Shown: positions 12,789 through 64,000 of the stretch, in pieces
How positions within the stretch are numbered: position 1 is the first letter of the stretch
Layout: each line of letters opens with the position of its first letter
DNA from: Tubulanus polymorphus
Taxonomy: Eukaryota > Animalia > Nemertea
NCBI RefSeq assembly: GCF_964204645.1
Contig: NC_134027.1
Location: forward strand, 17,570,560 to 17,634,559
Direction of reading: 5' to 3'
Length of the DNA stretch: 64,000 bases
Notes under the pieces: generated by a model
Told to the model about the DNA's origin: nothing
The model's database searches: none
What the model saw: only the letters and a program-made list of their open reading frames with translations
Position numbers and translations under genes: made by a program

Positions 12789-12791
12789 AAA

Positions 12792-13639: not shown

Positions 13640-14060
13640 AAATATACTATGTCGGGTACATTTTAGATTAGATCGTTTTGGAAATATACTCTGTCCGGTA
13701 CATTTCAAATTACTCTGTATATCATCTATCAGGAGAGCGAAGAGAAGACGACTGAGGATACTACCTTGGTGACTCCACTAGTTAGACCGATTTATTCCGA
13801 GATGAGACAGTTTCGTTGAATTCGGCCACCTGTTTTCGTTCAGAGAAATCTGCTGAGCCATTTGAGCGACCCATCATTGATACCGTTTCCGAATAGATTA
13901 TTTAGTAATCGCTGATGTTGGACCTTATCAAATGCTTTTTTGAAATCCATAAAATTAATTGAGCCTAACAGTCCATTTTCCAGAGTCAAATAACCATCTG
14001 GTCCAGTCATCCATGGTTTCAAAGTAGGCCTCATTGACTGTTTGTCAACCGTCCTTTTAT
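13640..14060 (-). pseudogene. Old non-LTR (CR1/L2-like) RT fragment; second copy at about 17570-17990
   Basis: FMDFKKAFDKVQHQRLL...WLSRFL followed by a degenerate GV(P)QGSIL segment. Confidence 0.65.
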
Positions 14061-18157: not shown

Positions 18158-19125
18158 TCTATATTATGTTTGTACCTACCCATATTTTAGTTACCACAAT
18201 CAATTGCAAAGTTGTAGCTCATGAAATCGTCTATGATTGTGGTGAGTTTCAAGGACACAAGTTATTCTATATGGTCACCAGGTGGCGTTGAATAGTAGAA
18301 CTTGGTATTTACTTTTAAGATTGGTACCTAGGGATATTTGGTTACCATGATCGTTTGCAAAGTTGTAGTTCATGACATGTTCTATGAGTGTGGTGATTTT
18401 CAAGGTCATTGGGTTTTGCATATGGTCACCAGGGGGCATTGAATAGTAGAATAACTTAGTATTTCCTTATTAAATTGTTAACAAAGCATATTTTGTTATC
18501 ACAATCAATTGCAAAGTTGTAGCTCATGACATCGTCTATGATTGTGGTGAGTTTCGAGGTCATTGGTTTTTGTATATGGTCACTAGAGGGCAGTGAATAT
18601 TGAAATTGTTAGATTGTTGAGCATTTGAAACCACTTCCCAAGTGGGCATGATGTCCCTGGACCCTAGTTCCACATTATATTGATCCCTTAGCATATTTTG
18701 TTACTACGATCAATTGGAAAGTTGTAGCTCATAACAGTTTCTATGATTTTGGTGAGTTTCAAGGTCATTGGTTTTGTATATGACCACCAGGGGGCGTTGA
18801 AAGATAACATAACTTAGTAATTATATATCATATTTGTACCTATGCATATTTTGTTACCACAATCAATTGCAAAGTTGTAGCTCATGACATCGTCTATGAT
18901 TGTGGTCAGTTTTAATGACATTAGTTATTCTATGTGGTCACCAGGGGGCGCTGAATAGTAGAATAACTTAGTATTTCCATATAATATTGGTAACGAGGCA
19001 TGTTTTGCTATCACAATCAATTAAAAAATCATAGCTGCCTACATATTGTATATTTGTGGTGAGTTTCAAGGTCATTGGTTTTTGTATATGGTCACCAGGG
19101 GGCGTTGAATATTGAAAGTGTTAGG
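18158..19125 (+). repeat. HINE family A array of about 154-bp units and 3' end
   Basis: Same unit as 6320-6838. 3' terminus cccaagtgggcatgatgtccctggaccctagtt at about 18637-18669, followed by further units. Confidence 0.75.
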
Positions 19126-20791: not shown

Positions 20792-22211
20792 GTTTGTTCA
20801 GATAATTTGAAAAATAATTTTTTTGGCCTGACATGTTAGTTAATATAGCATTTGTATTTTTCTGATTTTTAAGCCCACTTGGGACTTCATTATTCCCAGT
20901 GGGCTATTGCGTTCACTTTTTGTCTGTCAGTAGATAGTTCAGTGAATTTGAGAATTTTTGAAGACGCGTCACTGGATTTACTTGGCGTTTGAATGTATCT
21001 ACCCTAGAAACATCTACTGCCAAAATCAGTACTTAATGCACATTTCTGAAAATTATTAAGATAAATCTCATGTAAGATTAAATTATTGTATTTGTCCAAA
21101 TTTATTAATTATTTCCTATGAATTAATATTAAAAATGGGAAATATAATTGGTTATAATTATCTTATTAAAACTGCAACAATGAATTCATTTGGATTATAA
21201 GATATAAATAAAACAGTTATCACTGCTCCAAAATTAATGGGAGGTGAAAAAAATAAAAAACACATTCAATCAACTGAAATTATAACTAAAAATATTAAAT
21301 TTATTAATGATTCTAAATTAAAAGATTATAATGCATCAGAAAATATTAAAACCGATAATATTCAGCACGATATAATTTAAAGTGATAATGATAATAAATC
21401 ACATGAAAATACTAAATAAGCTATGTCTTGTTTTGGAATTGTAATTGGTGGAATATTATATTTTAAATATTAATTTTTTTATTATATAAATGGCAAGTAA
21501 AATTACAGTTGTAGGCCTAGTGGATGGTGGAGAAGAAAAAATTGAAATGAAAGATTCTAATGAACCTGGTATAACTGAAACAACAAAAACCTGATTTTAC
21601 TGAAACAAGTTTTTATAATGATAATGATGATATAGTCAAATACGTTTAGAAAAAGAAATTAAAGATTTGACTTCAAGAATATAATTTAGAATTACAGAAA
21701 GATGAAAATAAATTATTATTAAAATCATATCATTATTGTATTAATAGATTACAAGTTATTATTAAAAATTGTTAATAGAACCAAATTCTGAGATATCATT
21801 AAAAGAAAAATAAGATTATTATTTAGATTAGAAGGTTTTACCATTTTTCAGTTTTAACAGCTGTAACTATGGTATTTACAACAATTGGATTAGCTATATC
21901 AAATTCATTAAAATCTATACCAAGTCCTAAACCACCAGATAAACCACTAAATAATAATGATTCTATACAAGATAAAGTTATAGATGGATTAAAGAAATTG
22001 GCAAATTGTTTATTGGAATTATCTAAAAAATCTGCTGCAGCTTTACCTGGATTTATAGCATCACTTGTTAGTTTTATATTGAAATATGCTGAAAATATTA
22101 TTAGTCTGGCTGCTGAACATATAATATTATTTTTAATTACAGTTGTAAGTGTTATTATTTTTGGATTTTTGTAAATTTGATAGAAAATAAATAATTAATT
22201 TTTTTTAATAA

Positions 22212-23300
22212 ATGGTGAATGGAAAATATATTGATCCTTCAAATAATTCTAGAATTTCTTATGCAATTAAAGCTAAACGTTGTCATTATATAATTACTCA
22301 TAATCCTAGTAATATTTATCCAAATTAATCCAAACTTACGACCATATTATGGAGCTCTAAACTTTCCACAAAATTCAGTTCTATCCTAGGCAGTGGTCAC
22401 ACAGCAAATCAGCAGAGAAAATCAAAATAAATAAAGAGCAAAAGCTAATAATGCAATAGTAACTAATGCCGCGGATAATTTAATTAAAACGATCTATGGT
22501 AGTAAGTATAAAATTCCTTTAGATTTTGAATTGATAAATAATATTGCACCGTATAAATATGCAATTCAAGAAGATATTATATTTGAAATAACTTTTGCAC
22601 CTGTAAATGAAATAGTATTATCGAGTGTTAAGATATTGGTTATAAATTATCAAATATATGTTTACAATATGATACAGTTACTAATGAAAATATTGCAAAT
22701 ACAATTCAAACTCGATATAATCAAGGATTTTCATTATTATATGATTATATAGATGAATTTAAAACTGTAACTATTAATGCAAGTGATGAAATGATAAATG
22801 AAAATATTAGATTTCCTAGAAGATCAAATAAAGGTATTTTATTATTTTTTGCTAAAATACATTCTAATAATATAAATAATATAATATGCTGATGCAATAA
22901 ATGTTGATAATTATTATAATCCTGAAATATTAAAAGTAGAAATAACAATTGAAGGTATAGCAAATAAAATGTTTTGTCAAGGAATGAGAATGATAGATCA
23001 ATGGGTAGAAATTAAAAAAAAACCTTTCATGAATGAAAAAATAAAATTATCTGAGGACTGTAATATTAAGCAAATTGATATTATACTGGTAATAAATTTG
23101 CATTATGGTTAGATTTTAGAACAACTGAAGATAATTCATTACATGGTTCTGATAAAAAATTAGAAAATACAAAAGATGGAATACAATTATTCATGATAAG
23201 AAAAAAGGAATTGACAATTATGAAATGCATATTTATATTATTTCTGATGCGCAATTAATTATAACAAATTCACAATTATATAGTATTCAATATCCAAAAT
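22212..23300 (+). pseudogene. Major capsid protein remnant
   Basis: YKIPLDFELINN, QEDIIFEITFAPVNEIVLSS, EITIEGIANK and LWLDFRTTEDNSLHGS match 57902-59148. Internal deletion and a foreign stretch at about 22325-22440. Confidence 0.8.
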
Positions 23301-24361
23301 ATGTAGTTGATATTGGTGATATATAAATGGGAGATAAAAAATCACCTAATCCTAAAGAACAATATTTAAGAAATTTATGTTATAATCCTGAGAGTTCAAT
23401 TGCCTATTCTTCTGTATAAAGAATATTTTGTAAGAATATTTGGCGTCAGGTAAACAAGATAAATTGAATAAGATAATCCTACAAAATTTAGTAAAAGATG
23501 AAGATATAAATGAATTTATATTAGAACAACCAACATATACAACACATAAAAAAAATTGTAAGAAAATTCTAAACTCGTAAAACTATGGTTAGTTATGTAG
23601 ATCAACAACGGCAGGGAGATTTAATTGATATGAAAATCTTTAAAAAGATTATAATTATTATTGGTGGATATTAACCCTTTCAATCCCACTACCGTATGGC
23701 ATACGGTACAAATTGACAAGCTAGCATACCTGTACCGTATGTGATACGGTATCACTTAACCCTTCTTCTAGAAGGGCATATCTATCAGTATCAGCCGGTG
23801 CTGCCATCTGCATAAAATCAAAGATGGCAACAGCCATGAAAAAAACAATTTGGCTGGATGAAACGGTTCAGCAGCTCGTATATGATGCTGACAGTGATGC
23901 TGGTGACTTGGAATTTGGTAGTGAACAAATTGAGAGTGACAACGAATATGACAGCAGCAGTTCAGATGATGTGAATTAGTCAGAAAGTAGGTTTATAGTG
24001 CCAGCAATGATTTTGATGATGAAAATGAAATCAGTGACAATTTTTTTAGACCCTGTTGATACGGTTGTCATGGTAACGGACACCAATAACAATAATGAAG
24101 AATCAGAAACTGTCCATCTTCAAGGTCACATATATTCAAATAATTTGTCTTATTTGTAAGCCCAATGGTTATCAACACCATGGTATAAAATGTATCAGTG
24201 TCAAATACATAGGAAAAATTTTCTGAGGCCTGAAATTATACCCCAATGAAACCCCTTACATCCGGACAGAGCAGTTTATCTGAAACTTTTTCGTGAATTT
24301 TTTTCATGGCGGCCATCTTGGAGTATGTGACCTTGACCTCAAGTTCACTTATATCCAAATT

Positions 24362-29512: not shown

Positions 29513-31686
29513 TTTATGTCTAAATTGTTGGCCCAAAAGTTATCAACAACATGCTATATAAATTTTCTGTGTCAGATACCTTGGTAACTATCCTATGAAG
29601 TTTCAAATATAACCCTATAAACCCCTAAATTCCCTCCGGTAAAGCAGTGGAGACACTATGTGGTATTGAAAGGGTTAAATAAAATTGATATTTTTTGTCA
29701 TTATGTATGGATTTTCCCACGATCCAGAAAAGATGCTGTACAAAACAAAAAGTTTAGGAAAATTTCTTTCAGGTGCATTAAAACCAGAAAAAAAACAATT
29801 TGATGATGGAAAAGAATTTGATAATTCATTAGTTCATAGTCTCTTAGATAACCATAATATTAAATATTTTTCAACAAAATCTGATAAAAAAGCAGCAGAA
29901 CAAGAATGTGGAAATATTTCACAGCAAATAATACTTTTAAATGGATTGATATTTGACCATAATTAATAGAAGGATATAATAATACTTACCATTCATCTTA
30001 ATACTTACCATTCATCTTTTGGAGTGAAACCTATCGATGCTAGAAAACCTGAAAATGCTGAAATTGTTTGAAACAATTTATATGGTGCATTTCCTGTAAA
30101 TGATTTTGGTGAACCTAGATATAAAGTTGGTCAAATGTTAGAATTTCTAAGTATAAAAAGATATTTGATAAAGGATATGATCGTAATTTTACTAGAGAAA
30201 TATATGTAAGATAAAAAAAGTTATAACAACAAAACCATATGTCTATAGATTAATAGATTTAGATGGTGACGAAGTTGCTGGGTAATTTTATGAAGAAGAA
30301 TTAAGTTTAACTACAGAAAAACTAGAACAAGAATATACGATTGAAAAATTATTAAAAACAAAAACTGTTAAAGGGGTTGTGAAGAGTTGTGGGAAAAGTT
30401 GATGAATTATCCTAATACTATATTTTTGTGAACCGCTTCGATCGCTAAAAACATTTCAATTGGAATTTTTCTAATTCCACCCATCCAAACCCGAAATATC
30501 CCCTTAGCAATGGCCCTGGCAACAGAATGGGCTCTCTCGCTGATCGTGGGAGATGTCGTCACACCGTGATACACTCAAAACCGGAAGTAAATTTCTACTA
30601 CGTGACACACGCTTTCTGTCGCAATCCGCTGTATTTTCCCCGTGTTTTTTATCATGCCTCGTCGTTGTGTAGCAATATATTGCTCCCACGATGATGGAAG
30701 ACTTTTTAAATGGCCTAAAGATGAGATAACAGCCCGCAAATGGACAAAATTTGTTCAAGTTAAACGAAAAGACTTCAAGTTAGATCGGACTGTCTCCACA
30801 CTGTCGTTGTTGTGTTATAGACACTTTGAAGACGAATGCTTTTCAAATCTAACTCAACTTCACTTTGGATTTGCTAAAAAGTAAGTGTTTGTTGTTTTAT
30901 TGTTATTTTCATTCAATTCTATGCAATTTATTACCCTCAGGACAGTAGGCCTACTCCTACATTATCTGCTAATTTCCTAAGCAAAACAAACCGTCCCAGA
31001 TGTAGGCTATTGAAAATTTCACTTAACAACTGTTTTTCAGATTTCTGTTAAAACCCTCTTCTGTACCAACTATACATCTCACTGGTCCAGATTAATCAGG
31101 AGATAGCACCAGTATTTCAAATAATGAGGCATCAACCAGCACTTCAATGCCATCTTCTAAACGGGGCGCGTTCAGAAAGAGGGAAAACAAACATTTAATA
31201 GAAGATGCCATCACCATCAATGATTCCGATCAGCTCGACCTTTCTGGAATAGAGCCTATTGCTCCATCGGATACATTATCTGATAAATGTTATGTCATTT
31301 TTTTCCTGGAACTACATTGTGAAGGTTCTATTTCAGCCTATATGCGAAAACTGACTTTTTGTTTAAAAGAATATTCTTGCAGGCATAAAGACACTGAAAT
31401 GGAAGCCAAATTGTGAGAGGTGTGTAAAAAAAGCCACGTCAGATCCAAACATGTTGAGTGTTCCTTAGGCCCATCTTACAAAAAAAGGAAGGGTGGTAAT
31501 AACTCTGATATCGATCATTTCTCTGATTCTGAAGAAAGCGATTGTGAAATCAAAGATAGCGATTGTGAAATTGAAAATCCGGATGATATTGATTTTGGAG
31601 AACACGAAAGTTGTTTCAATGATGATTAAAATCTAAATTTCATTATTTGTTTGCACTCATTAAATTATGATTTTCATAAACATATG

Positions 31687-47913: not shown

Positions 47914-48853
47914 GATTTAAGATGGCGGATAGCTGGTAGTACGATGTAGATCTCTCCTACAAAAATTATTTTCTGTGGTTCCTACACCACCCATACTCTT
48001 CTGGACTATAACGGACCAAAAGTCTACACAAAAGTGTGTGAGCTCAGATAACTTTTGCTGAGCTACGCCTTCAGAAAACAAGTAGTTTGAATACTTTGAA
48101 CATTTCAAAATCTAGTAAAGCTGGTACGTAGTATATTTGACAAAATTTGCTAACTAAACTTCTCGACCGTAACCGCGTGATCGTGAGAAAATCGTCACGC
48201 ATGGAATACGTCAACAACAACATAATCGATCGACATAATGGCGAACAACATGAACGTAACTCCCGACAATAGAGCTACCGACCCCAGGCCAGGGGATAAA
48301 CGACGCGTTCTCCACCGAAGTCCCGAATTATGCGACGGTGGGTCACTTGACTACCTAGACATTGAAACAGGAAGTATAATCACCTGCCATGTAATTAACG
48401 ATCCGTGTAAGAGCTGTCAAAAACTCGAATCCAAAATTGACCAAATGTTCTAAACTCTCTTAGACAAGATGAGCGTTCTCCCGGACGTACACAGCAAAAT
48501 AAACGATATATCCAGTTCGATGGCCAATCTCTCGGAAAGGGTGTTAAAGGTTGAAAATGAAATCACGGCGACAAAAAACTCTGTGATCAATACCCGTGTC
48601 GAAAACGATATAATCCTTCGAGATATGCGAGAAAATACAGACACACTTCAATCCATCTGAAAAGAAAATCAAAAACTAACTTCCCGCTTAAATTCTCTCG
48701 AGAATTACAATTGACGAGAAAATCTCATCATTTACGGTGTACCGGAATCAACAGACGAAAATCAACCTGAAAACTGCGACGAAATCGTACGAAAAATCAT
48801 CAAAGACTACGAACTAGGGATTACGAATCCCAACGAGATTTGCCTACAACGCG
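47914..48853 (+). mobile_element. LINE 5' part: 5' UTR and ORF1 (coiled coil plus RRM start), cut by the Polinton-like insertion
   Basis: aagatggcgg (YY1-type motif) at 47919. ORF from 48238 with stops, coiled coil, LENYN*RENLIIYGVPES...NCDEIVRKII. Ends at ICLQR. Confidence 0.75.
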
Positions 48854-49042
48854 AGTAATAGGGGAATGTGGCTTTCATACCAAAGGTCGAAAGGTCGAGC
48901 TCGTAAAAAATGAAAATAACAATAATTTCCAGTTGAATTAGTCGCGCACACTCCTAATTCAACTAGAATTTATAGTTATTTTCATTTTTTACTCACTCAC
49001 CCTTTTAACCTTTGATATGAAAGCCACATTCCCCTATTACTC
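48853..49042. repeat. Imperfect fold-back palindrome (arms about 89 bp, 12-nt loop)
   Basis: gagtaataggggaatgtggctttcata...agttgaattag tcgcgcacactc ctaattcaact...tatgaaagccacattcccctattactc. Confidence 0.92.
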
Positions 49043-49293
49043 TTAAAATATTCATTTACATGGATAAAATATATATGAATAACATATAAAAGTAATTAGA
49101 AAAGTGGGGTTTCAAGCCAGAGGTCGAAGGTCGAGCTCTTATAGAATAGATATATAGATATATTTTAAACATATTTCAATATTTATATTTGTATGAGTTA
49201 GATTTTTAAACATTAAAAGTTTTAGTAAAGTGTGATTGAAATAATTCATATATATATATATACATGAATAACATATAAATGAATAAAATATAA

Positions 49294-52200
49294 ATGAATA
49301 AAATGTGTAAAATCAATTTAAAAAAAAAATTTAGTATTAAAATGGAAACAAATAAGTACTACTGTTCAACATGTAAAATCAATATAGATAAATCCCATAA
49401 ATCAAGACACAATAAAACTAAAAAACATTTAGAGAATAAATTGAAATTAGAATATGAAGATGATATATTAGAATCTAAATTAGATGAATTAAATAATGAA
49501 AAAGAAATATATAAATGTGATACATGTAATCAATCATTCAGTGATAAAAGATATTATAATGAACATTTAAAATCTAAAAGTCATATTAGAAATATGAATA
49601 ATGATATTTTAGGTGAAGATTATTTTGATAATGATAATGATAACGATAAGAAACATAAGACAATTAAAAGAATAAGAAATAAATTAAACAATAAAAGACC
49701 ATACATGGAAGATGTAAGAAATTATATTAATTCATTAGGTAATAAAGAAGATATAGAGATAACCGAAGCATTTAAAAGTGATATTGGTCCAGCTGCTATT
49801 GAGTTTAAATTTCATAAAGGAAAAACATTAGAAGAAAATAAAAAACATTTAGAAAATATGAAAAATATTATAAAAATAATCACTGATGTTGAATACCCTA
49901 AAATTAGTATATCAGTTAAAGTAAAGTTTATAAAATCTGAAGATAAACCAATATATAATATAAATTCTCATTCACAACATATTATAACTAAACAACATAT
50001 AGATGATAAATTAGATAAATGTTATAATGAAGTAAAAACTAAAATAGAAGAGAAATATTTTGAAGGATCTGGTTTAATATTTGATGAAATAATATTTATG
50101 ACTTTACATGTGTATAACACAAAATATAATAAGTTAACTAAATCAAAACCAATAGATGAAATGTATCATATTATAAAGAACCAGATATTGAAGCATCGAG
50201 TTATATTAAACTACCATTTAAAACTAATGCTGTTATAAATGTACAAAATTTTGATGATAAATGTTTTCTATGGACAATTATAAGTTGCTTACATCAAACA
50301 GAAGATATTACACATAGTTTTAGATTAACAAATTATAAACAATTTGAAAATAATTATAACATAGATAAGTATCCAGTTAGAATTAAAAATATCCCAAAAA
50401 TAGAAAGAGATAATAATTTAAGAATAAATGTATTTGATTTAATCAAATTACCAAAAACAAAAGGCAACAATATCAAACATTCTACATTAGAACCTTTATA
50501 CCTATCAAAAGATTATGATTCAAATGATGTTATAGATATATTATATTATGAAAATCATTATATGTGGATTAAACAAATCGATTTATTCTTTAGAACAGAA
50601 AGTGATCATCATCGTAAAATTTATCTATGTAGAAAATGTTTACATAAATTCAGTAATGAAAGTACATTATTAAATCATAAACAATTATGTGATAATCATG
50701 ATTATTGTAAATTAGTTTTACCAAATGAAAAGGATAAAATATTAGAATTCAAAAAATATGATTACAAAAATTAAGTACCATTTGTAATATATGGAGATTT
50801 TGAATCATTAAATAAAGAATTAACTGATCAAGATAGAAAAGAAATATATTATAAAAGAAAGAAATTAAATTCTAATGAAAATGATTTTTCAGATGAACCA
50901 CCAAAAACAAATACAATTTGCTTTCGGGTTATATATAAAATCTGATTATCCAGAACTAATTGAAAGTGAATATTATCATTATAGAAATGAAAATGTTATC
51001 AATCATTTTTGTGACTTATTAATTGAATATGAAATAAGATTTAGTAAATTATTGAATACAAATATAGAAATTATAATGACAGAAGAAGATAAAGAAGAAT
51101 TTGTGTTTTCAGGTAAATGTTATTATTGTGAAAAGATATTTAATTATAAAGATAAAAAAGTAAGAGACCATGATCATTTGAATGGAAAGTTTAGCGGTGC
51201 TACATGAGAATTGTAACTTACAAGCCAAAAAAGTAAATTTTTTTCCAGTTATATTTCATGATCTATCAGGATATGATGCACATTTATTTATCAAACAGTT
51301 ATGCCATAAAATAGAAGAAATTAATAATGAAATAGAAAGATTAAATTCAAATAGATCAAAAGATAAAATACCAACTTATAAATTTAAAATGTTAGCTAGA
51401 ACATCTGAGAATTATATATCATTCCAATTTGGTTGCCTAAGATTTATAGATTCATATAGATTTTTAAATAGTTCATTAGATAATTTATCAAAATCATTAG
51501 TTGATGATGAATTAAAGATATTAAAACAACACTATCCAATTAATGATGATTTCCAATTAATGAGATATAAAGGAGCGATTCCATATTCATTCTATAAAAA
51601 TCATAATGATTTTAACATAACTGAATTATTGAAAGAACAATTCTATGATGAATTAAAAAATGAATATGTTAAAGATGAAGTATATAATAGAACATTGAAT
51701 ATTTGGAATCATTTTGGAATGAAAAATCATGGACAATTAGTAGATTTATATTTAAAATCAGATGTATTATTATTATCGGATATATTTGAAAGGTTTAGAT
51801 ATGTAAACCTAAAATATTTTAATATTGATCCTTGTCATTGTTATTCATCACCAGGTTTAACTTGGGACTGTGGTTTAAAATTTACAGATATAAAAATGGA
51901 TTTGTTAACAAATATAGATCAATTATTATTATTTGAAAAATCTATAAGAGGAGGAGTTTCAGGTGTATTAGGTGATAGATATTTCAATGTAAATGGTAAT
52001 CCTGGATATAAATTATTATATATAGATGCAAATAATCTATATGGTTCGGCAATGATAGAACCACAACCTTATGGAGTGTTTGAAATAAGTGAAGTTTTAC
52101 AACATGAAAATAATGATAAATTTGATTGGAAGAAAAGAATCCTAGATATTGCAGATGATTCAGATACTAGTCACTTCTTTGTTGTAGATTTAGAATATCC

Positions 52201-53290
52201 TGAACATATAAAATTTAAATCTAGAAATCTAGCATACTGTCCCGAACATAAAACTGTAACTCATGAAGAATTATCAAATTATCAAAAAAGAATTAAACCC
52301 GAAAATCATATTCATACAGAAAAGTTAATGGTAACTCAAGAATAGAAATATAATTATGTAGTACATTATAGAATGTTGAAGTTTTATTTGAACCAAGGAA
52401 TGGTTCTAAAAAAAGTACATAGATATATTTCATTTAGTCAATCTAAATGGTTAGAAAAATATATAGATTTTAACACCAAACAGAGAACTAAAGCTAAAAC
52501 TGATTTCGAGAAAGATTTCTTCAAGTTAATGAATAATGCATTCTATGGTAAGACTTGTGAGAATATTAGAAATAAAAATGATATTGAGTTAGTTAGTAAT
52601 GGTAAAAGGATAAGGCATTTACAAACATATCCCAAGTTCTTAGGTAACAGAATATTTGATGAAAATTTAGCTGCAGTTAAAATGAGAAGTACTTCTATGA
52701 AATTTAATAAACCAATCTATGTTGGTGCTTCAGTTTTAGAAATATCAAAATTACTAATGTATGAATTCTATTATAATGTATTACAACCTCATTTTGGAGA
52801 AAAACATATAGAAATCATATATTTTGATACTGACAGTTACATTTTAAAGATTAAAACTAATAATCTAACAAATGATTTAAAAACATTAAAACATCATTTC
52901 GACTTTAGTAATTATCCAAAAGATAATGAATTGTTTAGCAATGTTAATAAGAAGCAGCCCGGGAAGTTTAAGGATGAATTAGGTGGTGAAGAAATGATAG
53001 AGTTCATTGGTATTAGATCTAAAATGTATTCATATAAAACTAAAGAACATGAAGCTAAAAAGTTAAAAGGAATTACTAAAAGTGTAGTAGAAAAGAATAT
53101 TCATTTCAAAGATTATATCAATTGTATATTCAATGAAGAAGTTAGAAAACATAAGATGAAAGATCAGAAGATCACGAAATGTTTATTAAAGAAATAGAAA
53201 AGATAAGTCTAAACCCATTTGATGATGAAAGATATATTTTAGATGATGGAATTCATACAGTTGCATATGGTTGCAATTTAGATGAATAAT
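49294..53290 (+). pseudogene. Protein-primed family B DNA polymerase (pPolB) with N-terminal zinc fingers; several frameshifts and stops
   Basis: ExoI VIYGDFES, endonuclease-VII-like CYYC...VRDHDHLNGKF...CNL, ExoII FHDLSGYDAH, YLKSDVLLL, pol motifs YIDANNLYG, KLMNNAFYGK, YFDTDS. In-frame stops at 50772 and 52343. Confidence 0.95.
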
Positions 53291-53380
53291 TAAAATTTAA
53301 AAGAGAAGAAACAAAAGAAAATGAGATTATGAAAAGGATTCTAACGTGTTAATCAATTTTAATACAAATATGTATTATAA

Positions 53381-53734
53381 ATGGAGAGTAAACAAGCAAA
53401 CCGTGAGAACAACAAATTATTTCTAGATAGAATAAAAAATACTTCAAATGTTAAATCAGTAGATTATAAATTTAAGAAGTTAAAAGAATTAACAATCCAT
53501 AAGAAATATCTAATTACAAATATTGATACAGTTACTAACAAATATGGAGATAAATTAGTTATACACTTAGAATATGAAGGATTAAAAGGAAATACATATA
53601 AATTCAGGACATATTTACCTGATAGATTTCATAGATTATCAAGTGAAGATTTAGAAGAATTATGTTTAGGTGATTTCTATTTCGTATACAAAGGTAAGAA
53701 TGAAAAAGGGCACCATGAAATAGATTTCGAATAA
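53381..53734 (+). CDS. Hypothetical viral protein (117 aa)
   Basis: Intact ORF with TAAATG start directly after pPolB. Confidence 0.7.
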   Translation: MESKQANRENNKLFLDRIKNTSNVKSVDYKFKKLKELTIHKKYLITNIDTVTNKYGDKLVIHLEYEGLKGNTYKFRTYLPDRFHRLSSEDLEELCLGDFYFVYKGKNEKGHHEIDFE

Positions 53735-53748
53735 AATATGTAAAATAA

Positions 53749-54506
53749 ATGGTAGAATTAAAAGAATATAGAATAGATGTTGATTCTAGAAAACTTACAA
53801 ATTACAAATCTCATAATTTACTAGTACAATTAGATAGAGAATTTAAGAATTGTGTTGATTTAAAATTAGTAAATGTAAGTTTATGTAATTCTTTTTATAA
53901 TGTATCGAGTAAAACTATTGATCATAATATTTTTTTAATTCATTTTAGAAATATAAATAAATGGTTTCATCTAATTTTAAAACCAGGATTATATAATTTA
54001 GAAACACTAGCTCAAGAAATTAATAGAAGAGCACGGTTAAAAATTAGAAGTGAAGATAAATTTTTAATTAGATTTATAAAAAGTGATAGCACAAATAAAA
54101 TTAAAATAAAGTTACATGATGAAAGTCAACATTCATTTATGGTGAGAAAACCATTGGCTAAATTGCTAGGAATTGCACCAAATATTGTTACAGGAAACGT
54201 AGATGGTAATTCGAAATATAATGCCTTTTTCACACTTGTATATTTATTGCAATTTAATTAATGCTACAAAAAAATTTCGAAGCAACTAAAGATATAACTT
54301 GTAATTCTAGTATATTAAATATACCATTACAAAATGTTAAAAAATTTGGAACACAAATTAATTATAATTTAGCTGAATGTGATTTTAAACCTTGTATTTC
54401 ACGATTTAACAATTTTAAATTAGAAATAAGAAATCATAATGGTTATTTAATTGATTTGAATAACTTTCCTATAATTTATGAATTAATTATAAGATGTAAA
54501 GAGTAA
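53749..54506 (+). pseudogene. Putative minor capsid (penton-like) protein, frameshifted
   Basis: IDVDSR...VQLDREFKNCVDLKLVNVSLCNSFYNV, LKPGLYN, LYIYCNLI, LEIRNHNGYLIDLNN resemble Polinton/PLV penton patterns. Confidence 0.7.
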
Positions 54507-54522
54507 TTTTTTCACTATATAA

Positions 54523-54867
54523 ATGAATATAACTGTTGGATCGAGTAAATGTTTTGGATTTGGTTTTAAACATGAGAAAGAAATGAAATTTAACGTTAAT
54601 GATGTAATAACACATATTAAAAATATTGCATTTTCTAATGAAACAACATTTGAGTATGAAAAAACAATAGATAAAGAAACTTTTAATGTAGAAAAGATTA
54701 CCGAGTCTTTAAGATTTTATGAATTAGATGAAGATTTTATAATTGATGATATTAAAAGAATAATAACTGAAATATATGAAAATGAACCTAATAATACTAT
54801 AAATGTTGAAATAATCATAAATAAGATAACTAAATATTTTGAAGATAGTAATTTTTTTTATAAATAA
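54523..54867 (+). CDS. Hypothetical acidic viral protein (114 aa)
   Basis: Intact ORF, TAAATG start, abuts the next gene. Confidence 0.6.
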   Translation: MNITVGSSKCFGFGFKHEKEMKFNVNDVITHIKNIAFSNETTFEYEKTIDKETFNVEKITESLRFYELDEDFIIDDIKRIITEIYENEPNNTINVEIIINKITKYFEDSNFFYK

Positions 54868-55089
54868 ATGAGTGATAATAAGTGGATAATAACTGGTTTA
54901 TATAATGGAGCATTATTATCAGTTGGAACTGTTGGTTATACAATGGTATTAAAAAAAGTATTTAAAATGGGAAGTGTTAATGTTGATAGATTTGATATAA
55001 ATGATATTTTAAAATTAACATTAGCAGTTACTTTATCTAATTTAACTATTGATTATTTGGAAAAACAAAAATATATTCCTCCTATATAA
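54868..55089 (+). CDS. Small hydrophobic viral protein (73 aa)
   Basis: Two hydrophobic segments; TAAATG stop/start junction. Confidence 0.65.
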   Translation: MSDNKWIITGLYNGALLSVGTVGYTMVLKKVFKMGSVNVDRFDINDILKLTLAVTLSNLTIDYLEKQKYIPPI

Positions 55090-55113
55090 ATGCGTAATTA
55101 TTTTACTAAATAA

Positions 55114-55455
55114 ATGGCTTCTGTAGTTATAACTATTATAGGATCGGCAATTGTTAACGCTTTAGCATTTGGTGGTGGATATTTATTTAAACATGTTGAT
55201 AAAAATGGTACATTATCAGAACAAAAAAGACATAACTTAGCATTAGAGAAATATAATAAAGCTGCAGAAGAATATAGAGAAAAGAGGCAAAACTATATGG
55301 ATTATATGAACAAGGAATTATATGATCAGAAGATTTCACATAGAGATTTTCAATCAGTTGATGATGCAATGAGTTTATATAACGCGGTAACAAATAAAGA
55401 AAAATTACATCTACATAAACCTACAATATCAGATTATTATATGTTTAAAAAGTAA
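55114..55455 (+). CDS. Viral protein with hydrophobic N-terminus and coiled coil (113 aa)
   Basis: MASVVITIIGSAIVNALAFGGGYLF...EQKRHNLALEK; TAAATG start. Confidence 0.7.
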   Translation: MASVVITIIGSAIVNALAFGGGYLFKHVDKNGTLSEQKRHNLALEKYNKAAEEYREKRQNYMDYMNKELYDQKISHRDFQSVDDAMSLYNAVTNKEKLHLHKPTISDYYMFKK

Positions 55456-55468
55456 AATTATATATTAT

Positions 55469-55753
55469 TTGATTATAAGTGGTTCGGTTACAATTAGTTC
55501 TGTAATAACATTTCTAGCAATATTCAGCCCATTAACACCTTTAGCTATATCAATTGGTGTGTTAGGATTAATTTCAAGTGTATTAACTGGCATAAGTTCA
55601 AAATTAAATATAAAAAGTAATAAAGAAAAAATTAGAACTAATATTAAAGAAATTAGTAAATCGAAGAATACACTAGATTATATAATGAGTTTAAATGGTA
55701 ATATTACAGTTGAAGAACAAGATAAATTATTAAAAGAATTAATAAATTATTAA
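55469..55753 (+). CDS. Two-helix membrane protein, start uncertain
   Basis: SVITFLAIFSPLTPLAISIGVLGLISSVLTGI followed by a charged tail. Confidence 0.55.
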   Translation: MIISGSVTISSVITFLAIFSPLTPLAISIGVLGLISSVLTGISSKLNIKSNKEKIRTNIKEISKSKNTLDYIMSLNGNITVEEQDKLLKELINY

Positions 55754-55769
55754 TTTTTTTATTATATAA

Positions 55770-56033
55770 ATGGGGTTTCCAAAAGCTTTCCAATATAATA
55801 AATCAATTAAATATAATATTCCTGCAATAGATTTTAACAAAAATATTACATATAAAAATTTAGTTTTAAATTCATTAACTAATTTAGAAATTTATGTTAC
55901 TGAATCACAGTTTTTTATTTCTAAAATGGAAAATATATTTAATACATATGAAGTTACTTTTACTCGAGATGAATATCATTTATATAAAGTAAAATCCAGA
56001 AAACATTGTAAGATATCAAAATTATTTAGATAA
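55770..56033 (+). CDS. Hypothetical viral protein, possibly truncated
   Basis: TAAATG start; the 3' region is also conserved at about 21045-21130. Confidence 0.5.
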   Translation: MGFPKAFQYNKSIKYNIPAIDFNKNITYKNLVLNSLTNLEIYVTESQFFISKMENIFNTYEVTFTRDEYHLYKVKSRKHCKISKLFR

Positions 56034-56103
56034 ATCACATATTAGATTAAATTATTGTATAGGCCCTAATCTATTAATTATTTCTAATGATTTAGTATTA
56101 AAG

Positions 56104-56454
56104 ATGGGAAATATAATTGGTTATAATAATCTAATTAAAACTGCAACAATAAATAATTCATTTGGATTAAATGATATAAATAAAATGATTATCACTGCCC
56201 CAAAATTAATGGAAGGTGAAAAAAATAAAAAACATATTCAATCAACAGAAACTAAAACTAAGAATATTAAATTGGATAATGATTCTAAAATAAAAGATTA
56301 CAATACATCAGAAAATATTAAAACTGATAATATTCAACATGAAATAATTAAACTAAATGATGATAATAAATCCCATGAAAATGCTAAATTAGCTTTAACT
56401 TGTATAGGAATTCTAATCGGAGGAATATTATATTTTAAATTTTTTATTATGTAA
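56104..56454 (+). CDS. Small protein with Met-Gly start and C-terminal transmembrane helix (116 aa)
   Basis: MGNIIGY...LALTCIGILIGGILYFKFF; homolog at about 21135-21470. Confidence 0.7.
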   Translation: MGNIIGYNNLIKTATINNSFGLNDINKMIITAPKLMEGEKNKKHIQSTETKTKNIKLDNDSKIKDYNTSENIKTDNIQHEIIKLNDDNKSHENAKLALTCIGILIGGILYFKFFIM

Positions 56455-57880
56455 ATGGATGTAGAAGGCGGAAAAGCTTATGAAATGGGAGAAATGGGAA
56501 TTAATAATAAAGGATATATTGATGATGATTATAATGATGCAGAAACTAATATTGATAATTATGATGAATCAGCATATAATACTAATTTAGCAGATAGTGG
56601 TTCTAAAGCCCCATCAACAGATGAATTTGATAGAAGAACTAGATCGAGAATAAATCCTGAAAATGAAAATCCAGATTTAGTAAAACAAAATTTAGAATAT
56701 AATGAATATATTTATAATTTCAAACCTATATTTGAAAAATCTGGATATAATATAAATGCCAGAGGCGCCAGACTTTTAGTAAATATTAAAATCTTTAGAT
56801 GGCGAATATTATTATCATTTGCAAGATGATTATTATATTAATATCTCTTATAAAAATCAAAACGAAATATAAGCAGAATCAACTTTGAGTAATTTAGAAC
56901 CAGATAGAATTAAAAGAATAAGAAATAGTAATGAAATAGAAAATGTAACACAAGAAAAAATAAATCAGAATAGAAAAGTATTTAAACAAAGAATTAATGA
57001 CTTATTTGAAACAATCGATAATAATTTAGATCCAGAAACAACTTCTGAACAGAATATAACTTCCAAAACTAGTAAACCTAATTCAAGAGTAGTTCAAACT
57101 GAAAAACTTTTACCAAATCGATTACTTGATGCAACGAAACAAGAATTAGAAGATTTAAATATATTTTCTGATAGAGCAATTAGATAAATTATTAGTATAC
57201 AAAATAAAGCTGTTAAATTTGCGCATGATAAAAGTGTAAGAGATTTTAAAATTATAACTTTAGAAGATCAGAACAACTAAAATTAGATAGAGATAATAAA
57301 GTTATTGAGGAAATTGAATTTAAAAAAAGAAATGCATATTTAGAAAAAGAAATTGATAATTTAGAATATAACATAGAATTTCAGAAAGAAGATATCAAAT
57401 TATTAAAAAAATCATATGATTATTGTATTAATAGATTAAAAGTTGTTGTTAAAGATTTAATAATTAAACCAGATTCTGAAATATCATTGAAAGATAGAAT
57501 AAAATTATTATTTAAGTTAGAAGGAATCACAATTCTTTCAATTCTAACAGCTGTAACTATGGTATTTACAACAATTGGTTTAGCAATATCAAATTCATTG
57601 AAATCTACTCCTACTCCCAATAAACCGGATAAACCCCCGAATGATAATAATTCTATACAAGATAAAGTTAAGGATGGTTTAAAGAAATTAGCAAAATATT
57701 TATGGGACTATCTAAAAAATCTGCTGCAGCATTACCCGGAGTTATTGCATCAATTGTTGGTTTTATATTGAAATCTGCTGGGAATATTCTTAACTTTGCT
57801 GCTGAACATATTATTTTATTTTTAATTACAGTTGTAAGTGCAATTATTTTTGGGTTAATGAATATGATAAAAAATAAATA
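56455..57880 (+). pseudogene. Large coiled-coil protein with C-terminal hydrophobic helices, frameshifted
   Basis: Acidic N-terminus, coiled coil, LFKLEGITILSILTAVTMVFTTIGLAI, SAAALPGVIASIVGFILK, EHIILFLITVVSAIIFGL. C-terminus conserved in the remnant at 21869-22174. Confidence 0.7.
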
Positions 57881-57901
57881 ATTAATTTTTTTGTTAAATA
57901 A

Positions 57902-59148
57902 ATGAGTGGGAGTTATATAAGTCCTTCTAAGAATTCTAGAATATCTAATGCTATTAAAGCAGAAAGATCACATCATGTAATTACTCATAACCCTTCTAAT
58001 ATTAATCCCGATGAAACTTTATATGTTAGAAATCCTCGATTAACACAAAATACTTTTTATGTTCCAAATAGTATTTATTTATCAGCCGATATAAAAGTAA
58101 CTGGTAATAATAATAATTATGTTGTTGATAATGTTGGGAGATATTTGATTAAAAAATTAGCTGTAAAGATTGGACCAGAAACAGTTTTCTCATTGGATAA
58201 TTATAATTTATTTATGCATTTTAAAGATTTATGGTTAACAAAAGAAAATAGAAATAATATGATATTTCAAGGCATCCAATCAGAAAACCAAAATAAATTA
58301 AGATCTGAACCTAATAATGCAGTAGTAACTAATGCTACAGATAATTTGATAAAAAAGATTTATGGAAGCAAATATAAAATTCCATTAGACTTTGAATTGA
58401 TAAATAATAATGCGCCTTTATACAAATATGTTATACAAGAAGATATTATATTCGAAATAACATTTGCTCCTGTAAATGAAATTGTATTATCTAGCGTTGT
58501 TAAAGATATGGGTTATGAATTATCGAATATATGTTTAGAATATGATACAGTAACTGATGAAAATATTGCTAGCATAATTCAAACTCAATACAACCAAGGA
58601 TTTTTATTATTATATGATTATATTGAAAAATTTAAAACTGTAACTATTAATGCAAATGATGAAATAATTGATGAGAATATTAACATCCCAAGAAGATCTA
58701 TTAAAGGTATGTTAATATTTTTGCCATTGCAACGTATACTAATGGTCCAATAAAAGTTGATAATTATTATAATCCTGAAATATCAAAAGCAGAAATAACA
58801 ATTGAAGGCATAGCAAATAAAATATTTCGTCAGGGAATGAGAATGATAGATCAATGGCCAGAAATTAGAAAACATTTTATGAATGAAAAAGTAAAATCAT
58901 TTGAAAATTGTAATATTAATCAAATTGATTATTATACCAGTAATAAATATGCATTATGGTTAGATTTTAGAACAACAGAGGATAATTCATTGCATGGTTC
59001 TGGGAAAAAACTACAAAATACTAAAGATGGAATACAATTATTCATGAAAAAGAAAAAAGGAAGTTTAAATTTCAAAATGCGCGTTTATATTACATCCGAC
59101 GCGCAATTAAATATTGTAAATTCACAATTAGATAGTTTTATGTTTTAA
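57902..59148 (+). pseudogene. Putative double jelly-roll major capsid protein, one frameshift near 58720
   Basis: About 415 aa when joined. VITHNPSNI...LYVRNP, LSNICLEYDTV, YYNPEISKAEITIEG, ALWLDFRT...LHGSG, ITSDAQLNI. Size, context and conservation between the two copies fit a capsid gene. Confidence 0.75.
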
Positions 59149-59197
59149 GTGTTATGAAATATTAAAATTTTAACTTTAATAAAAAATCTTATATTAG

Positions 59198-60393
59198 ATG
59201 GAAGGTGGAATATATGAAATACAAACTCCAAGTGAAATGATATCAGATATATATTATATATTACCTATGATGAATACAGTAATTATTTTGGAGAATACTT
59301 TAATCAATTCAAATATAGAATAAGTAAAATAGATAAGAATATTGAAACAAAAAAAGAAAATAATATTGAACTTAAAATAGAAGATAAGAATGATATTGAA
59401 TATAAGATAGAAGATAATATTGAAACTAAAATAGAAGATAGTAATAATATTGAAACAAAAAAAGAAGGTGTAACATCATCTACATCTTATAATATACCCT
59501 CTACATATCATATTGAATCAAAAAAAGATTATTATAATCAAAAATATTGTGATGTATGTAAGAAATATATATCATATAAAAATTGGGCATCACATAAGAA
59601 ATCAAAGAAACATATAGAAAAAGAAAAGAATAATAATGATAATAATATATCTGGTAATAATATAATAGATAATATCATAGATAATGTTAATACAATTGAA
59701 ACAAATGATACCATAGATAATATAACAGATAATGTTGATATAATTGAAACTAATGATAATGAAACAATTGATGATTCTAAAAAAAAAAATTTTTACATTT
59801 GTGATTTAGATATTTCTAAAAGTAATTTTTCTAAACATAAAAAATCTCAAGCGCATATCGAAAATGAAAGGAAGTTAGAAGAACATGAACAGAAATTAGA
59901 AGAAATAGAAAGAAATAAAATGTGCCAATATTGTAATAAAAAAATTGAACCTGTTGATGAAAATACTCATTATAAATCAAAATTACATCTAATAAATGTT
60001 TATAAAATAATGGGTATGATACCATTGTTAAATAACCCAGAGAAATATATGAAATATTTTAATCCTAAAACTAACCAATATTATATATTCTATAAGTTGT
60101 TATTTGATAAATTATTAGCTTATGCAGAAGATAATCATGAACAAATCTATTTTTTATTATATTTTAGAAAAATAGATTTAATTTATCTAATCAAACATTT
60201 TGGATATCAATTTGATTTTGATAATGATGATTTTGATGAATACTTAGAAAAATAAAGAGAAAAAGCTAATATACCTACTAATTATCAATCAAAGATGACT
60301 CGACTAAAATTAATAAATCTACCTAAGACTTTTGATGAATTAGATATAAACAGAGATGATTTTATAGATGTATTAGAAACAAAATTAGAATAA
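59198..60393 (+). pseudogene. Multi zinc-finger protein with low-complexity Asn/Ile/Glu repeats, disrupted
   Basis: YCDVCKKYISYKNWASHKKSKKH, a second degenerate finger near 59790-59860, and CQYCNKKIEPVDENTHYKSKLH. Confidence 0.65.
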
Positions 60394-60411
60394 TTATTAT
60401 AAAACTATTTT

Positions 60412-60760
60412 TATATCTATGTACTAGACGTACGTAAGAATCTTGGTAAGAATCCAAGAATCCAAGAAATCTTACTTTCTTACTCGTACGTCTAGTACAT
60501 AGATATATATGTACATATATAATAGTTTTCATAAAAATTAAAAACACAAAATTATTAATCTAAGTATAGAAATAGTTATAATATAATCTATTTTTATTTT
60601 TATTAAGAGAGAACATATAATTTATTCATTTTTATATAATTCATTTAATAATTTATATATCTATGTACTAGACGTACGTGTAAGAATCCAAGAATTCTTA
60701 CTTTCTTACTTTCTTAGCAAGAATCTTGGATTCTTACGTACGTCTAGTATATAGAAATAT
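60412..60760. repeat. Two related hairpins (60412-60507 and about 60656-60760) between convergent genes
   Basis: Arm tatatctatgtactagacgtacg / cgtacgtctagtacatagatata (perfect 23 bp in the first); interiors built from aagaatcc and ttcttact units. Confidence 0.9.
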
Positions 60761-60793
60761 AAATTAGTTTCTATAATATTCCAAATTAGGATT

Positions 60794-61405
60794 TTATTTT
60801 ATAAATTTATATTCATAGGGAAATTGAAGCCTCAGTAATAATTTTGAACCTTTATTATTCTTTAATTTATTCATATATTCATCATGTAATTCAGTAGGTA
60901 TAATTTGATTTTCTTCCAATGATTGTTGCATAGATTTTCTATCTTTATTGTAGAATAAAACTAAAAATCTTATATTCTCCCTAAAGTTTTTAACAATTGA
61001 ATTATATTTTTGATTTAAAACCCATGTTCTTATCCCAAAATGTCTCCCAGAGAAAGCTAGATAACATAACTCACTTTCTCTAACTTTTGAATCATGTAAA
61101 TTAGCACAATCATCTATAATGAATAATGTATTTAATCCTGTATAAATATCTAATGCTATTTTTATACAATTATCTAAATTTTCTTTTACTGTTTTAGGAT
61201 TTAATATAATAAACTTTTTTATCTTAACTATATCTCTATTATATGTTTTATTCATTTCATAAGTGGGGCAGAATAATATTATATTATCAAAATAATTCTT
61301 ATAAATAGTTTCTAACAAATCTAATATGAAATGTGTTTTACCGCAGTTTGTTACTCCAGTAACTAACATATTATGCGGTTCAAATATAAATAAATCTTTA
61401 TTCAT
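60794..61405 (-). CDS. A32/FtsK-like DNA packaging ATPase (203 aa, intact)
   Basis: Walker A GVTNCGKT, Walker B LFIIDD, SGRHFGI...LNQ motif. Confidence 0.92.
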   Translation of the reverse strand: MNKDLFIFEPHNMLVTGVTNCGKTHFILDLLETIYKNYFDNIILFCPTYEMNKTYNRDIVKIKKFIILNPKTVKENLDNCIKIALDIYTGLNTLFIIDDCANLHDSKVRESELCYLAFSGRHFGIRTWVLNQKYNSIVKNFRENIRFLVLFYNKDRKSMQQSLEENQIIPTELHDEYMNKLKNNKGSKLLLRLQFPYEYKFIK

Positions 61406-62479
61406 TTATTCTTTTAATTTTACTAGATAAAATCCATTCATTAAATTTATCATCGTATCCTTTATATTTCACCAAAGAATACTTTTTTCCTTTAAGAGTT
61501 TTTGTTTTCAATACTTTTTCTATTTTGTATTCTATTTCATCTGGGTTTGGTACAAGTGATAATTCTTGTTCATAGAAATAACCTAATATTTCTTCATCTT
61601 TTAGATCTTCTAATTTATAAACAAATGGTTTAGTTAATATTATCTTTTTAATCTTAAATATTTCTTCAGTAAAATTAGGGGTATAACCTTTATAAAAGGT
61701 TTTTCTATATTTAGATATTCTAACGTGTTGTCCAATTTAAATTTAGGTTTTCCAAAATCATGTGTTACAAACGCGCCATATAAATTATTCCAAACTATTT
61801 CTGAATTATCTTCTTTTCTAGCTTGTATAGGTTTCATATTTATAGAACTATGTTTAGAATTATTATAACCTTTCACTAAATCATCTAACACATCGATATA
61901 TTTATATGTTTCATTAGCAGTAAAGTATTTCCACATTCTAGTTTTCGATGTTTTATTAAATCTTTCTATAATAGATGCTTTTTTATCTGAATGTGTTGAA
62001 AAATACTCTACATCGTTAACAGATAATAGTTTTTTTAATTGTTTGTTATAGAATTCCTTACCTTCATCAAATTGTATCTTACCTGGAATAGATTCAAATA
62101 TATTCTTAAAAGCATTTGTCACTTCTATTCCACTTTTATTTTTGATTGGAATTGACCACGCGTATCTACTGAATATGTCTATAACATTCAGTATCCAGAA
62201 ATATCCTTTGTTGTATTCTTCTAAGTTCTTCATGTCAATTAAATCAGCTTGCCATTGTTGATCGATATATGAAACCATTACTTTTCTTGTTAAATGAGTT
62301 TTATCCATTTTCTTGTGGATTTGATATGTTGGTTGATTTTGTAACCATGATTTTAATTCGCTATATTTTATATTTTCTTTATCGGATTTAATTTTACCCC
62401 ATAATTCTGAAACGTTAGAATATGATACTTCACTTTCTGGGTTATAATATAAATCTCTTAAATATTGTTCTTTTTTCAT
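61398..62479 (-). pseudogene. Retroviral-like (rve) integrase with C-terminal chromodomain, frameshift near 61730
   Basis: WQADLIDM, IDIFSRYAW, QFDEGKEF, KASIIERFNKT. After the shift: YKIEKVLKTKTLKGKKYSLVKYKGYDDKFNEW. Confidence 0.92.
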
Positions 62480-62499
62480 CTTCTTTTAATCCATTAATA

Positions 62500-62856
62500 A
62501 TAATTTAGATTTAGTTTCAATGACTTAATGATTTGACTTATTTTCTGGTATAATAGGTTTATCATCATTGGAATCATCTTTATCATCAGATTTGAAATTT
62601 GATTTATATATTACACCGGATAATATAATAATTGTGATTAACACAATTGTAATATATAAGTAGTTATTTCTTCCAGCATTATAAGAATTAGATGGATTGT
62701 TATTTGAATCAATATCAGATAAAGTCTGTGATTCATTTATATCAGTTAATTTCTTTTTCTTAGCTTTTTTTTTAATTCTGCAGATCTTTTACCTAATTCT
62801 CTTGCCCATTTAATTTGTTTTTCAGATCTAACCTTTTTCTTAACGCCATCACTCAT
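62500..62856 (-). pseudogene. Small basic protein with a C-terminal transmembrane helix, frameshifted (not in ORF track)
   Basis: TAAATG start MSDGVKKKVRSEKQIKWARELGKRS, then YLYITIVLITIIILSGVIY after a shift in an A-run. Confidence 0.55.
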
Positions 62857-63319
62857 TTATTTTAGTTAATTTTTGTTCTGATTCATTTTCTGTTTCGCCG
62901 TTTGGTTGTAGTACATCTGTTTCGTTCTTACCTGATTTATATTCCATAGGTTTGATGTTCGAAAATGTTATGACACCAGTAGAAATTAATGTCATAACCG
63001 ATCCTAATTGAAATGAAGCGTAACCAACCCATTTTTGTAATTCAGTCATAACTAAGTAGTCATTTTTCGAATCATTATATAATTTATTGGTATCATCAAT
63101 TGGTATTAACTGGTTACATAACTTAGAGTAACATTTGATAATACCATCCGAAATAGAATCATTTATTCTAGCTAATCTAGCTTCTTCATAAATCTTAAAA
63201 TATTTTATTACTTTATCTGGTTTCATAGAGTCTAGTTCTTGAAAAGTAATGGTCTTAGTTAAAAACTCCTTAGATTTCCCGCCAGCAATTAGTAATTCAA
63301 GATGGTGTTTACAATTCAT
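62849..63319 (-). CDS. Hypothetical viral protein, probable start MNCKHHLE
   Basis: Long open frame within the gene block; the stop overlaps the next start. Confidence 0.6.
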   Translation of the reverse strand: MNCKHHLELLIAGGKSKEFLTKTITFQELDSMKPDKVIKYFKIYEEARLARINDSISDGIIKCYSKLCNQLIPIDDTNKLYNDSKNDYLVMTELQKWVGYASFQLGSVMTLISTGVITFSNIKPMEYKSGKNETDVLQPNGETENESEQKLTKINE

Positions 63320-63609
63320 AATCAATATTGTTATTAACTTGAATATTATTTTCAATTTTGGTCGGAATATCCTTATTATCACTAATACCCAAATCATCTA
63401 ATGTTTTTTCAATATCAATTCTATTCTTACTCGATATCTTTGAAATTTATATTAGAGAAAAAAAGCAAGAAAAGTATTATAAGTATTCTTCAAATGATAT
63501 TAGTATCTCTTTGGGCTAATACTAGCTTAGTTCAGTTAAAGAATTTGAGTATTAGTTATTGTTTTTTTAGTATTTTTCATTTGTGATATAAAGTATTCCC
63601 TTTTGAAAA

Positions 63610-64000
63610 TATGAGAGATCCCGAAACGAGACCAACAATAAAACAACTAATCCCAATCAAAAGAAATAACAGAAATAACAATGTCAGAATTTGCAAACTT
63701 GAGCTACCCAACGTCCTCAACTTATTCAAAAATAATGATATCGTGCTGATATCAGAAACATGGAATTCCGCGGAAACAGCGTTCCAAACACCAGATGGAT
63801 TCTCATATTTTCAACAGACAAGAAAGAAAAAATCGCGCGCGAAACGTCATTCCGGTGGTCTGCTGCTTTTTTGCTTTTGAACTGAAAACCGGGATAAAAC
63901 TTTTAAAATCCGATAACGCGGACTATCTCTGGATTAAACTTGATAAGACGGTTTCACGCCTGAACGAGGACACTTTTATATGTTTGGCCTATGTATCGCC
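63610..64000 (+). pseudogene. LINE ORF2 apurinic-like endonuclease fragment
   Basis: NDIVLISETW, RHSGGLLLF, YLWIKL, YICLAYV; GC content returns to the host-like level. Confidence 0.85.

Follow-up and report, generated by a model that had tools for sequence, protein, structure and literature searches.

The AT-rich element and its genes

The window analysed here is a 64,000-nucleotide stretch of the nemertean Tubulanus polymorphus (contig NC_134027.1, positions 17,570,560 to 17,634,559), and our subject is the motif TAAATG at the gene starts of an element near its right-hand end. From about 48854 to 63600 there is a block of 21-26% GC within host DNA of 35-40% GC, and judged by its genes this block is a decayed, multi-copy Polinton-like provirus. 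Most of its long genes are broken in the window copy. The features are listed with homologues in related metagenome loci (L001 and others); "core" refers to the upstream run described below.

48853-49042, no strand: foldback of 190 nt on the left margin of the AT-rich block; 89-nt arms, 88% complementary; -66.1 kcal/mol, z -19
49294-53290, plus: protein-primed B-family DNA polymerase (pPolB) with N-terminal zinc fingers, in several open reading frames (ORFs); start ambiguous, 49294 or 49342
53381-53734, plus: conserved 117-aa gene, TAAATG start; aligns from residue 1 with L001:125
53749-54506, plus: putative minor capsid gene, two ORFs, TAAATG start with core; homologue L001:565, weak PF19254 match
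54523-54867, plus: 114-aa gene, TAAATG start with T-run core; homologous to the N-terminus of L001:1333
54868-55089, plus: 73-aa gene, TAAATG start; 92% identical to L001:1733
55114-55455, plus: conserved gene with truncated 3' part, TAAATG start; homologous to L001:2014 residues 1-110
55445-55750, plus: remnant of a SLATT-like membrane-protein gene; matches L001:2541 residues 43-144, weak PF18142 match on the homologue
55770-56454, plus: gene of about 440 aa with an internal deletion, TAAATG start at 55770; L001:2996 and L020:59 match both parts
56455-57880, plus: broken gene of about 450-485 aa, hydrophobic C-terminal part, TAAATG start with core; L001:4328, L020:1388
57902-59148, plus: double jelly-roll major capsid gene (from homologues and the P0001 model), two ORFs, TAAATG start with core
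59198-60393, plus: broken zinc-finger-like gene, start TAGATG; the orthologous starts in L002, L003 and L008 have the motif
60385-60773, no strand: nested palindromes between convergent genes (inverted repeats I2, I3, I5, I11)
60794-61405, minus: A32 packaging ATPase (PF04665), TAAATG start
61404-62479, minus: rve integrase (PF00665), broken near 61700, start AAGATG
62500-62856 (3' limit approximate), minus: broken small gene, TAAATG start with core; L003:6613, L008:5420, L001:9951
62849-63580, minus: broken conserved gene, start CAAATG at 63580; L003:7251, L008:6069, L001:9410
21048-23680, plus: remnant of a second subfamily, capsid gene then integrase, both on one strand; TAAATG at 21490, 22212 and 23327

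The gene kit includes pPolB (PF03175, E 1.5e-13, broken in the window copy), an rve integrase (E 3.5e-8) and an A32 ATPase (E 5.4e-12). Homologues of the capsid gene at 57902 are about 415 aa long, and the predicted structure of the closest of them, P0001 (pLDDT 77), is that of a double jelly-roll capsid, matching the capsids of the iridovirus SGIV, PBCV-1, mavirus and Sputnik with E from 1e-13 to 1e-10. The modelled capsid and the three profile matches together place the element among the Polintons and Polinton-like viruses (PLVs; Polisuviricotina). It shares pPolB, integrase, ATPase, a jelly-roll capsid and many genomic copies with the group 1 Maverick-Polintons. However, on profile searches it appears not to belong to that group, as the capsid proteins of the window and of L001 have no PF21738 match, while three capsids from our control elements do; kinship to the classical Maverick capsids is remote, with profile scores up to 21.6 bits. 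The PF21738 elements compared here have A-rich starts and not TAAATG. One preprint describes, from octocorals, hydrozoans and bivalves, animal-derived PLV ATPases that fall outside the Maverick groups (10.64898/2026.06.19.733378).

With 238 clusters at E<=1e-30 the capsid family is large, and an alignment of 53 capsid sequences was too divergent for use as a search query. Capsid and ATPase queries found zero relatives in IMG/VR, and the 442-aa gene had no Atlas match. Four queries that we presume to be proteases (Pfam was silent on the two tested) had zero matches in the window or the family loci, none of which is complete.

Read depth is about 200-790 over most of the element and 4-10 in the least-covered bins of the same run, which points to dozens to about 200 related copies. 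In run X1, depth over 49000-63400 relative to host repeats is several-fold above that in X2 and X5, which may be library bias; the longest contig of X1 is 83 kb. The greater depth in X1 than in X2 was rejected as a sign of amplification, as summed contig depth is not copy number and the library types are not known.

TAAATG at gene starts in the window

A sequence-only reading of this DNA had listed eleven TAAATG starts in the element, three more in the remnant at 21490, 22212 and 23327, and TAATTTTTT runs upstream of four of the starts (54523, 54868, 55770 and 57902). All are present in the sequence. It had also suggested a test for enrichment over background, and enrichment is borne out: TAA occupies -3 to -1 at 10 of 21 ORF starts chosen without regard to the motif (at least 70 aa, fragments of broken genes included), as against 38 of the 597 remaining ATGs (p 5.8e-7, Fisher test). 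When starts are placed by homology or position relative to the relatives, 10 of 13 are TAAATG (p 2.8e-10 at a background of 0.064). The start at 56455 was placed by position, its N-terminus not being alignable with the relatives, and that of the gene remnant at 55445-55750 cannot be scored because its 5' end is missing.

Three exceptions had been named. Those at 59198 (TAG) and 62479 (AAG) are real, but 56104 is an internal methionine of the 55770 gene and thus not a gene start; 63580 (CAA) is a further exception. The case of 49294 is mixed, since TAAATG is present as claimed but the start of pPolB is ambiguous: 49294 is part of a tandem repeat of 15 nt and has no upstream core, whereas at 49342 there is an in-frame ATG with the core, reading TAAAATG. 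At 54868 and 56455 the TAA is also the stop of the upstream gene, as had been pointed out, although for 54868 L001 has a 19-nt gap instead.

Lineage specificity

A homologue search returned 24 metagenome loci, and 12 intact relatives were pooled for start counts. The near-duplicates L002, L010, L011 and L013, the broken L017 and the weak matches L018 and L021-L024 were not pooled, and L015 and L016 were counted separately; L010 was added in the analyses of start orientation, convergent ends, termination, the -3 base and the core. In the 12 relatives TAAATG is at 51 of 57 ORF starts and 78 of 1850 other ATGs (p 1e-57; the relatives share ancestry, so that the starts are not independent draws). 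The motif is kept at 40-44% GC in L005 and L006.

For comparison we took nine pPolB loci from IMG/VR, comprising six controls, L033, L025 and L029, the last omitted as too short. The controls have TAAATG at 3 of 77 starts with upstream AT content matched (0.84 against 0.86), L025 at 0 of 1, and host flanks under the same ORF rule at 1 of 36. The motif is thus specific to the lineage and not a product of AT-richness.

L033 is a distinct element of 9034 nt and 38% GC that encodes a putative fusion of protease and integrase, and all 7 of its 7 starts read TAAATG. Bootstrap trees join it with the window family in 0% of cases for the ATPase, 0% for pPolB and 10% for the integrase; the trees are poorly resolved and unrooted, L029 is absent from that of the ATPase, and several loci miss one gene. 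A second origin of the motif in L033 is possible on these sequences.

A deoxynucleoside kinase gene (PF01712) lies inside the element in L001 (10343-10981, minus strand), also with a TAAATG start, and an identical protein is on a 16,883-nt contig. As a pointer to a helper virus it was uninformative. Four homologues were found, the structure matches are to eukaryote-like deoxynucleoside kinases, and the one IMG/VR match (37%) lacks the motif, with one TAA start among the 17 listed.

Promoter-like anatomy

The anatomy was examined at 68 starts from 13 family loci and L033 (ORFs of at least 60 aa). TAA is present at 21 of 22 head-to-head starts, 34 of 39 tandem starts, 6 of 6 unassigned and the single start that abuts an upstream stop. 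Coupling of stop to start, which the sequence-only reading had allowed might account for the motif, is therefore not the cause, as the head-to-head starts carry the TAA too and only 1 of 68 starts has an abutting stop. The distance between some head-to-head starts is as little as 19-30 nt, too short for ordinary 5' untranslated regions.

Further upstream there is conservation at positions not used in selecting the starts, with A at -18 in a fraction of 0.71 and T at -12 in 0.90 of the 68. A T-run ends near -10 and is followed by a 6-nt spacer before TAAAT. Of the TAA starts, 18 of 21 in head-to-head and 32 of 34 in tandem arrangement have T at -12. The core of A-18 and T-12 accompanies 41 of 55 start TAAATG but only 8 of 83 non-start TAAATG, and in the window copy the figures are 8 of 10 and 9 of 37.

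Published accounts divide the vaccinia late promoter into an A/T stretch, a spacer of 6 bp and the initiator TAAAT(A/G) overlapping the ATG (PMC7117657; PMC5294985). By sequence the family has the same three parts, a TAAAT overlapping the ATG and an upstream A/T core with a spacer within 5-7 nt. It differs in that the layout fronts nearly all genes, integrase and ATPase among them, of an integrating element of about 15-17 kb with no polymerase match. A promoter-like nature of the motif is strongly supported at the sequence level, as the layout runs through the whole family, is specific to the lineage, depends on neither stop codons nor GC content, and is that of vaccinia late genes.

As to translational context, 54 of 60 family starts have T at -3, against A in 54 of 77 control starts, and +4 is G in 41 of the 60. 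A T at -3 is a poor context for ordinary initiation.

The upstream T-run had also been linked to the poxvirus early termination signal TTTTTNT. As proposed, this is not supported: the run keeps a constant distance from the ATG that follows, TTTTTNT is found within 60 nt at only 1 of 16 convergent gene ends, and a promoter core is the better reading. In the relatives the coding strand of the genes has fewer TTTTT-V-T than expected (9 against 22.4), whereas the antisense strand does not (103 against 99.8), and TTTTT-V-V is not depleted (44 against 51.1). Control elements show no such contrast (18 against 24.1, and 50 against 64.3). The depletion hints at a polymerase sensitive to T-rich signals.

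Proposed transcription by a helper virus

We suggest, with a probability of roughly 0.58, that at most genes of the element a late promoter of pox type serves the RNA polymerase of a co-infecting nucleocytovirus, which need not be a poxvirus. The T-run core, spacer and TAAATG would be late promoters, and a helper polymerase with pox-type late initiation would transcribe each gene as a monocistronic unit from within the AAA of TAAATG. In vaccinia slippage at TAAAT gives poly(A) leaders (PMC6211774). The same slippage here would replace the T at -3 and give an AAAAUG(G) start context, supplying the A-rich context that the control elements encode directly. The element would use its own pPolB, ATPase and capsid inside the helper's factory, and its integrase would return it to host DNA, as in integrating virophages. 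Families of RNA polymerase and capping enzymes had zero matches among 16 L001 and 18 window proteins.

There are precedents for parts of this. Sputnik, mavirus and the PLV Gezel-14T, similar to our element in size and gene kit, borrow promoter motifs from their helpers, late ones in the case of Sputnik and mavirus (10.1101/2022.07.28.501842). They differ in having protist hosts, helpers and motifs of Mimiviridae type, and a helper dependence shown experimentally. The PLVs in entomopoxvirus occlusion bodies are likewise Polinton-like, and hyperparasitism on poxviruses has been proposed for them (Barth et al. 2024, PMC11296320). There the link is by co-purification; the words "promoter", "motif" and "upstream" occur 0 times in the main text, which has no promoter analysis, and all four encode a protease, for which we found no match in our family. 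Virophage promoter borrowing and the idea of pox-associated PLVs are already known; the TAAATG signature in an endogenous family we did not find in print. The main texts of a largely open-access literature gave no report of TAAAT(G) starts in Polintons; the supplements to the entomopoxvirus-PLV and coral studies could bear on the point.

Several observations weigh against a helper. None was found, and a partial motif scan of IMG/VR (27 of 64 parts, 121 loci) gave no locus with comparable motif use. Its hits were mostly chance matches, 33 of the 121 being at an ORF start; the best two large-virus-like contigs, with genes such as D5 primase and Rab GTPase, have TAAATG at a minority of starts, one at 4 of 10 other starts and one at 5 of 16 counted along its entire length, and a third has it at 3 of 24, which suggests, weakly, that nucleocytoviruses other than poxviruses may also use a TAAATG initiator. 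L015 and L016 are close capsid relatives with the motif at 0 of 8 starts, where a switch of helper or of transcription mode is possible. Strict vaccinia-type late transcription does not call for the coding-strand depletion of TTTTTNT-like runs seen in the relatives, and the window copy does not show it (4 against 4.2 expected). Sense AATAAA is undepleted in family and controls alike; this does not discriminate between them, nor does depletion of splice signals. The dozens to about 200 host copies could also arise by helper-free nuclear transposition, and how a cytoplasmic polymerase would gain access to an integrated copy is unexplained. Genes of coral polintoviruses, which may or may not be of the same family as our element, are described as transcribed in ordinary colonies (PMC11131425).

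Alternative explanations

The best surviving alternative, which we consider unlikely, is that host RNA polymerase II, perhaps with a zinc-finger factor of the element, initiates at or just before TAAATG to give near-leaderless nuclear mRNAs with no helper, the likeness to pox promoters being convergent or inherited. The element does integrate, is multi-copy and encodes zinc-finger proteins, WATAAA resembles a TATA box, and the coral polintoviruses are expressed with no helper named (PMC11131425). However, a TATA box sits 25-30 nt before the start site (PMC5294985), so that the ATG would be skipped; the T at -3 is the opposite of what the control elements have, and the exact pox spacer would need coincidence.

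Two other explanations are improbable. One is the pox-derived cytoplasmic polymerase of an autonomous partner resembling yeast pGKL2, with our element as the dependent, pGKL1-like partner. The yeast plasmids are AT-rich, with compact genes and pPolB, and are not known to have a capsid or integrase; an RNA polymerase of their own and an upstream motif of early type belong to them as well. They use a TAAAN initiator with slippage (PMC6211774). Against this, our element has its own capsid and integrase and no such partner was seen. Position counts also gave nothing like what we take to be the yeast upstream element, of ATNTGA type.

The other is that TAA acts in translation or at 3' ends, as an in-frame stop that blocks extension, in polycistronic stop-restart or as part of an overlapping AATAAA poly(A) signal. 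The shared stops at 54868 and 56455 fit this, and AATAAA is formed at 16 of 34 tandem TAA starts as against 6 of 21 head-to-head. But it is hard to square with the orientation counts given above, and it leaves unexplained the fixed core at -12 and -18 and the preference for TAA over TAG and TGA.

That the motif is an artefact of AT-richness (TAA precedes 48 of the 615 ATGs in the element) and of a rule that takes as the start whichever ATG first follows a stop is refuted by the counts in AT-matched controls and host flanks under the same ORF rule, by its persistence at 44% GC and by the comparison of cores at start and non-start TAAATG.

Ends and surroundings of the element

The foldback at 48853-49042 is probably the left terminal structure of the element, the other option being a separate foldback element. 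Many reads depart from the window sequence at 48870, and the left arm is echoed just inside the element at 49100-49150, which suggests that the hairpin is part of the terminal structure. No second copy of the foldback, as would form a terminal inverted repeat, was found within the window, and the right end is apparently lost. The palindromes at 60385-60773 form two nested units with no long match in related loci and are possibly a small foldback insertion.

Flanking host DNA matches BEL/Pao, THAP and P2RX7_C, which by itself points to an animal host, and there is a near-identical tandem duplication of a BEL/Pao gag segment (11514-14359 and 15446-18291, spacing 3932 nt). A third remnant of the element's family, integrase only, is at 29675-30375. 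The immediate flanks (about 48200-48850 and 63600-64000) had no Pfam match and resemble what we take to be pieces of ORF1 and endonuclease of a long interspersed nuclear element, and from the look of both flanks the provirus may sit inside one.

Other lineages and significance

Other Polintons show different start motifs. In L026, L028 and L031, classical PF21738 Mavericks from IMG/VR, 33 of 41 ORFs have TAAAA no more than 12 nt from the ATG, against about 4.7 expected from upstream windows; this is like the pox intermediate or yeast virus-like element initiator, though it could also stem from a Kozak context rich in A. In L027 and L032, 3 of 7 and 7 of 15 ORFs have TATATA no more than 14 nt from the ATG, against 0-1 expected; the motif resembles the late initiator of African swine fever virus, whose late genes have TATA instead of TAAAT (10.1101/847343).

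The strict, lineage-specific pox-late layout on almost every gene offers a direct test of helper transcription and a search image for the helper. If helper transcription is correct, virophage-style promoter borrowing extends from protists to elements of the animal germline, and pox-like viruses would be predicted in hosts where none are known. A more tentative extension, which we think doubtful as it stands, is that animal endogenous PLVs of a widespread family live as integrating virophages on a pox-like virus yet to be discovered, and that the start motif of each lineage labels its helper. TAAATG would then stand for a pox-type late system in the window family and L033, TATATA for an asfarvirus type in L027 and L032, and TAAAA for the helper of the classical Mavericks. 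Animal Mavericks would in general be helper-transcribed satellites, possibly serving as a germline defence against giant viruses.

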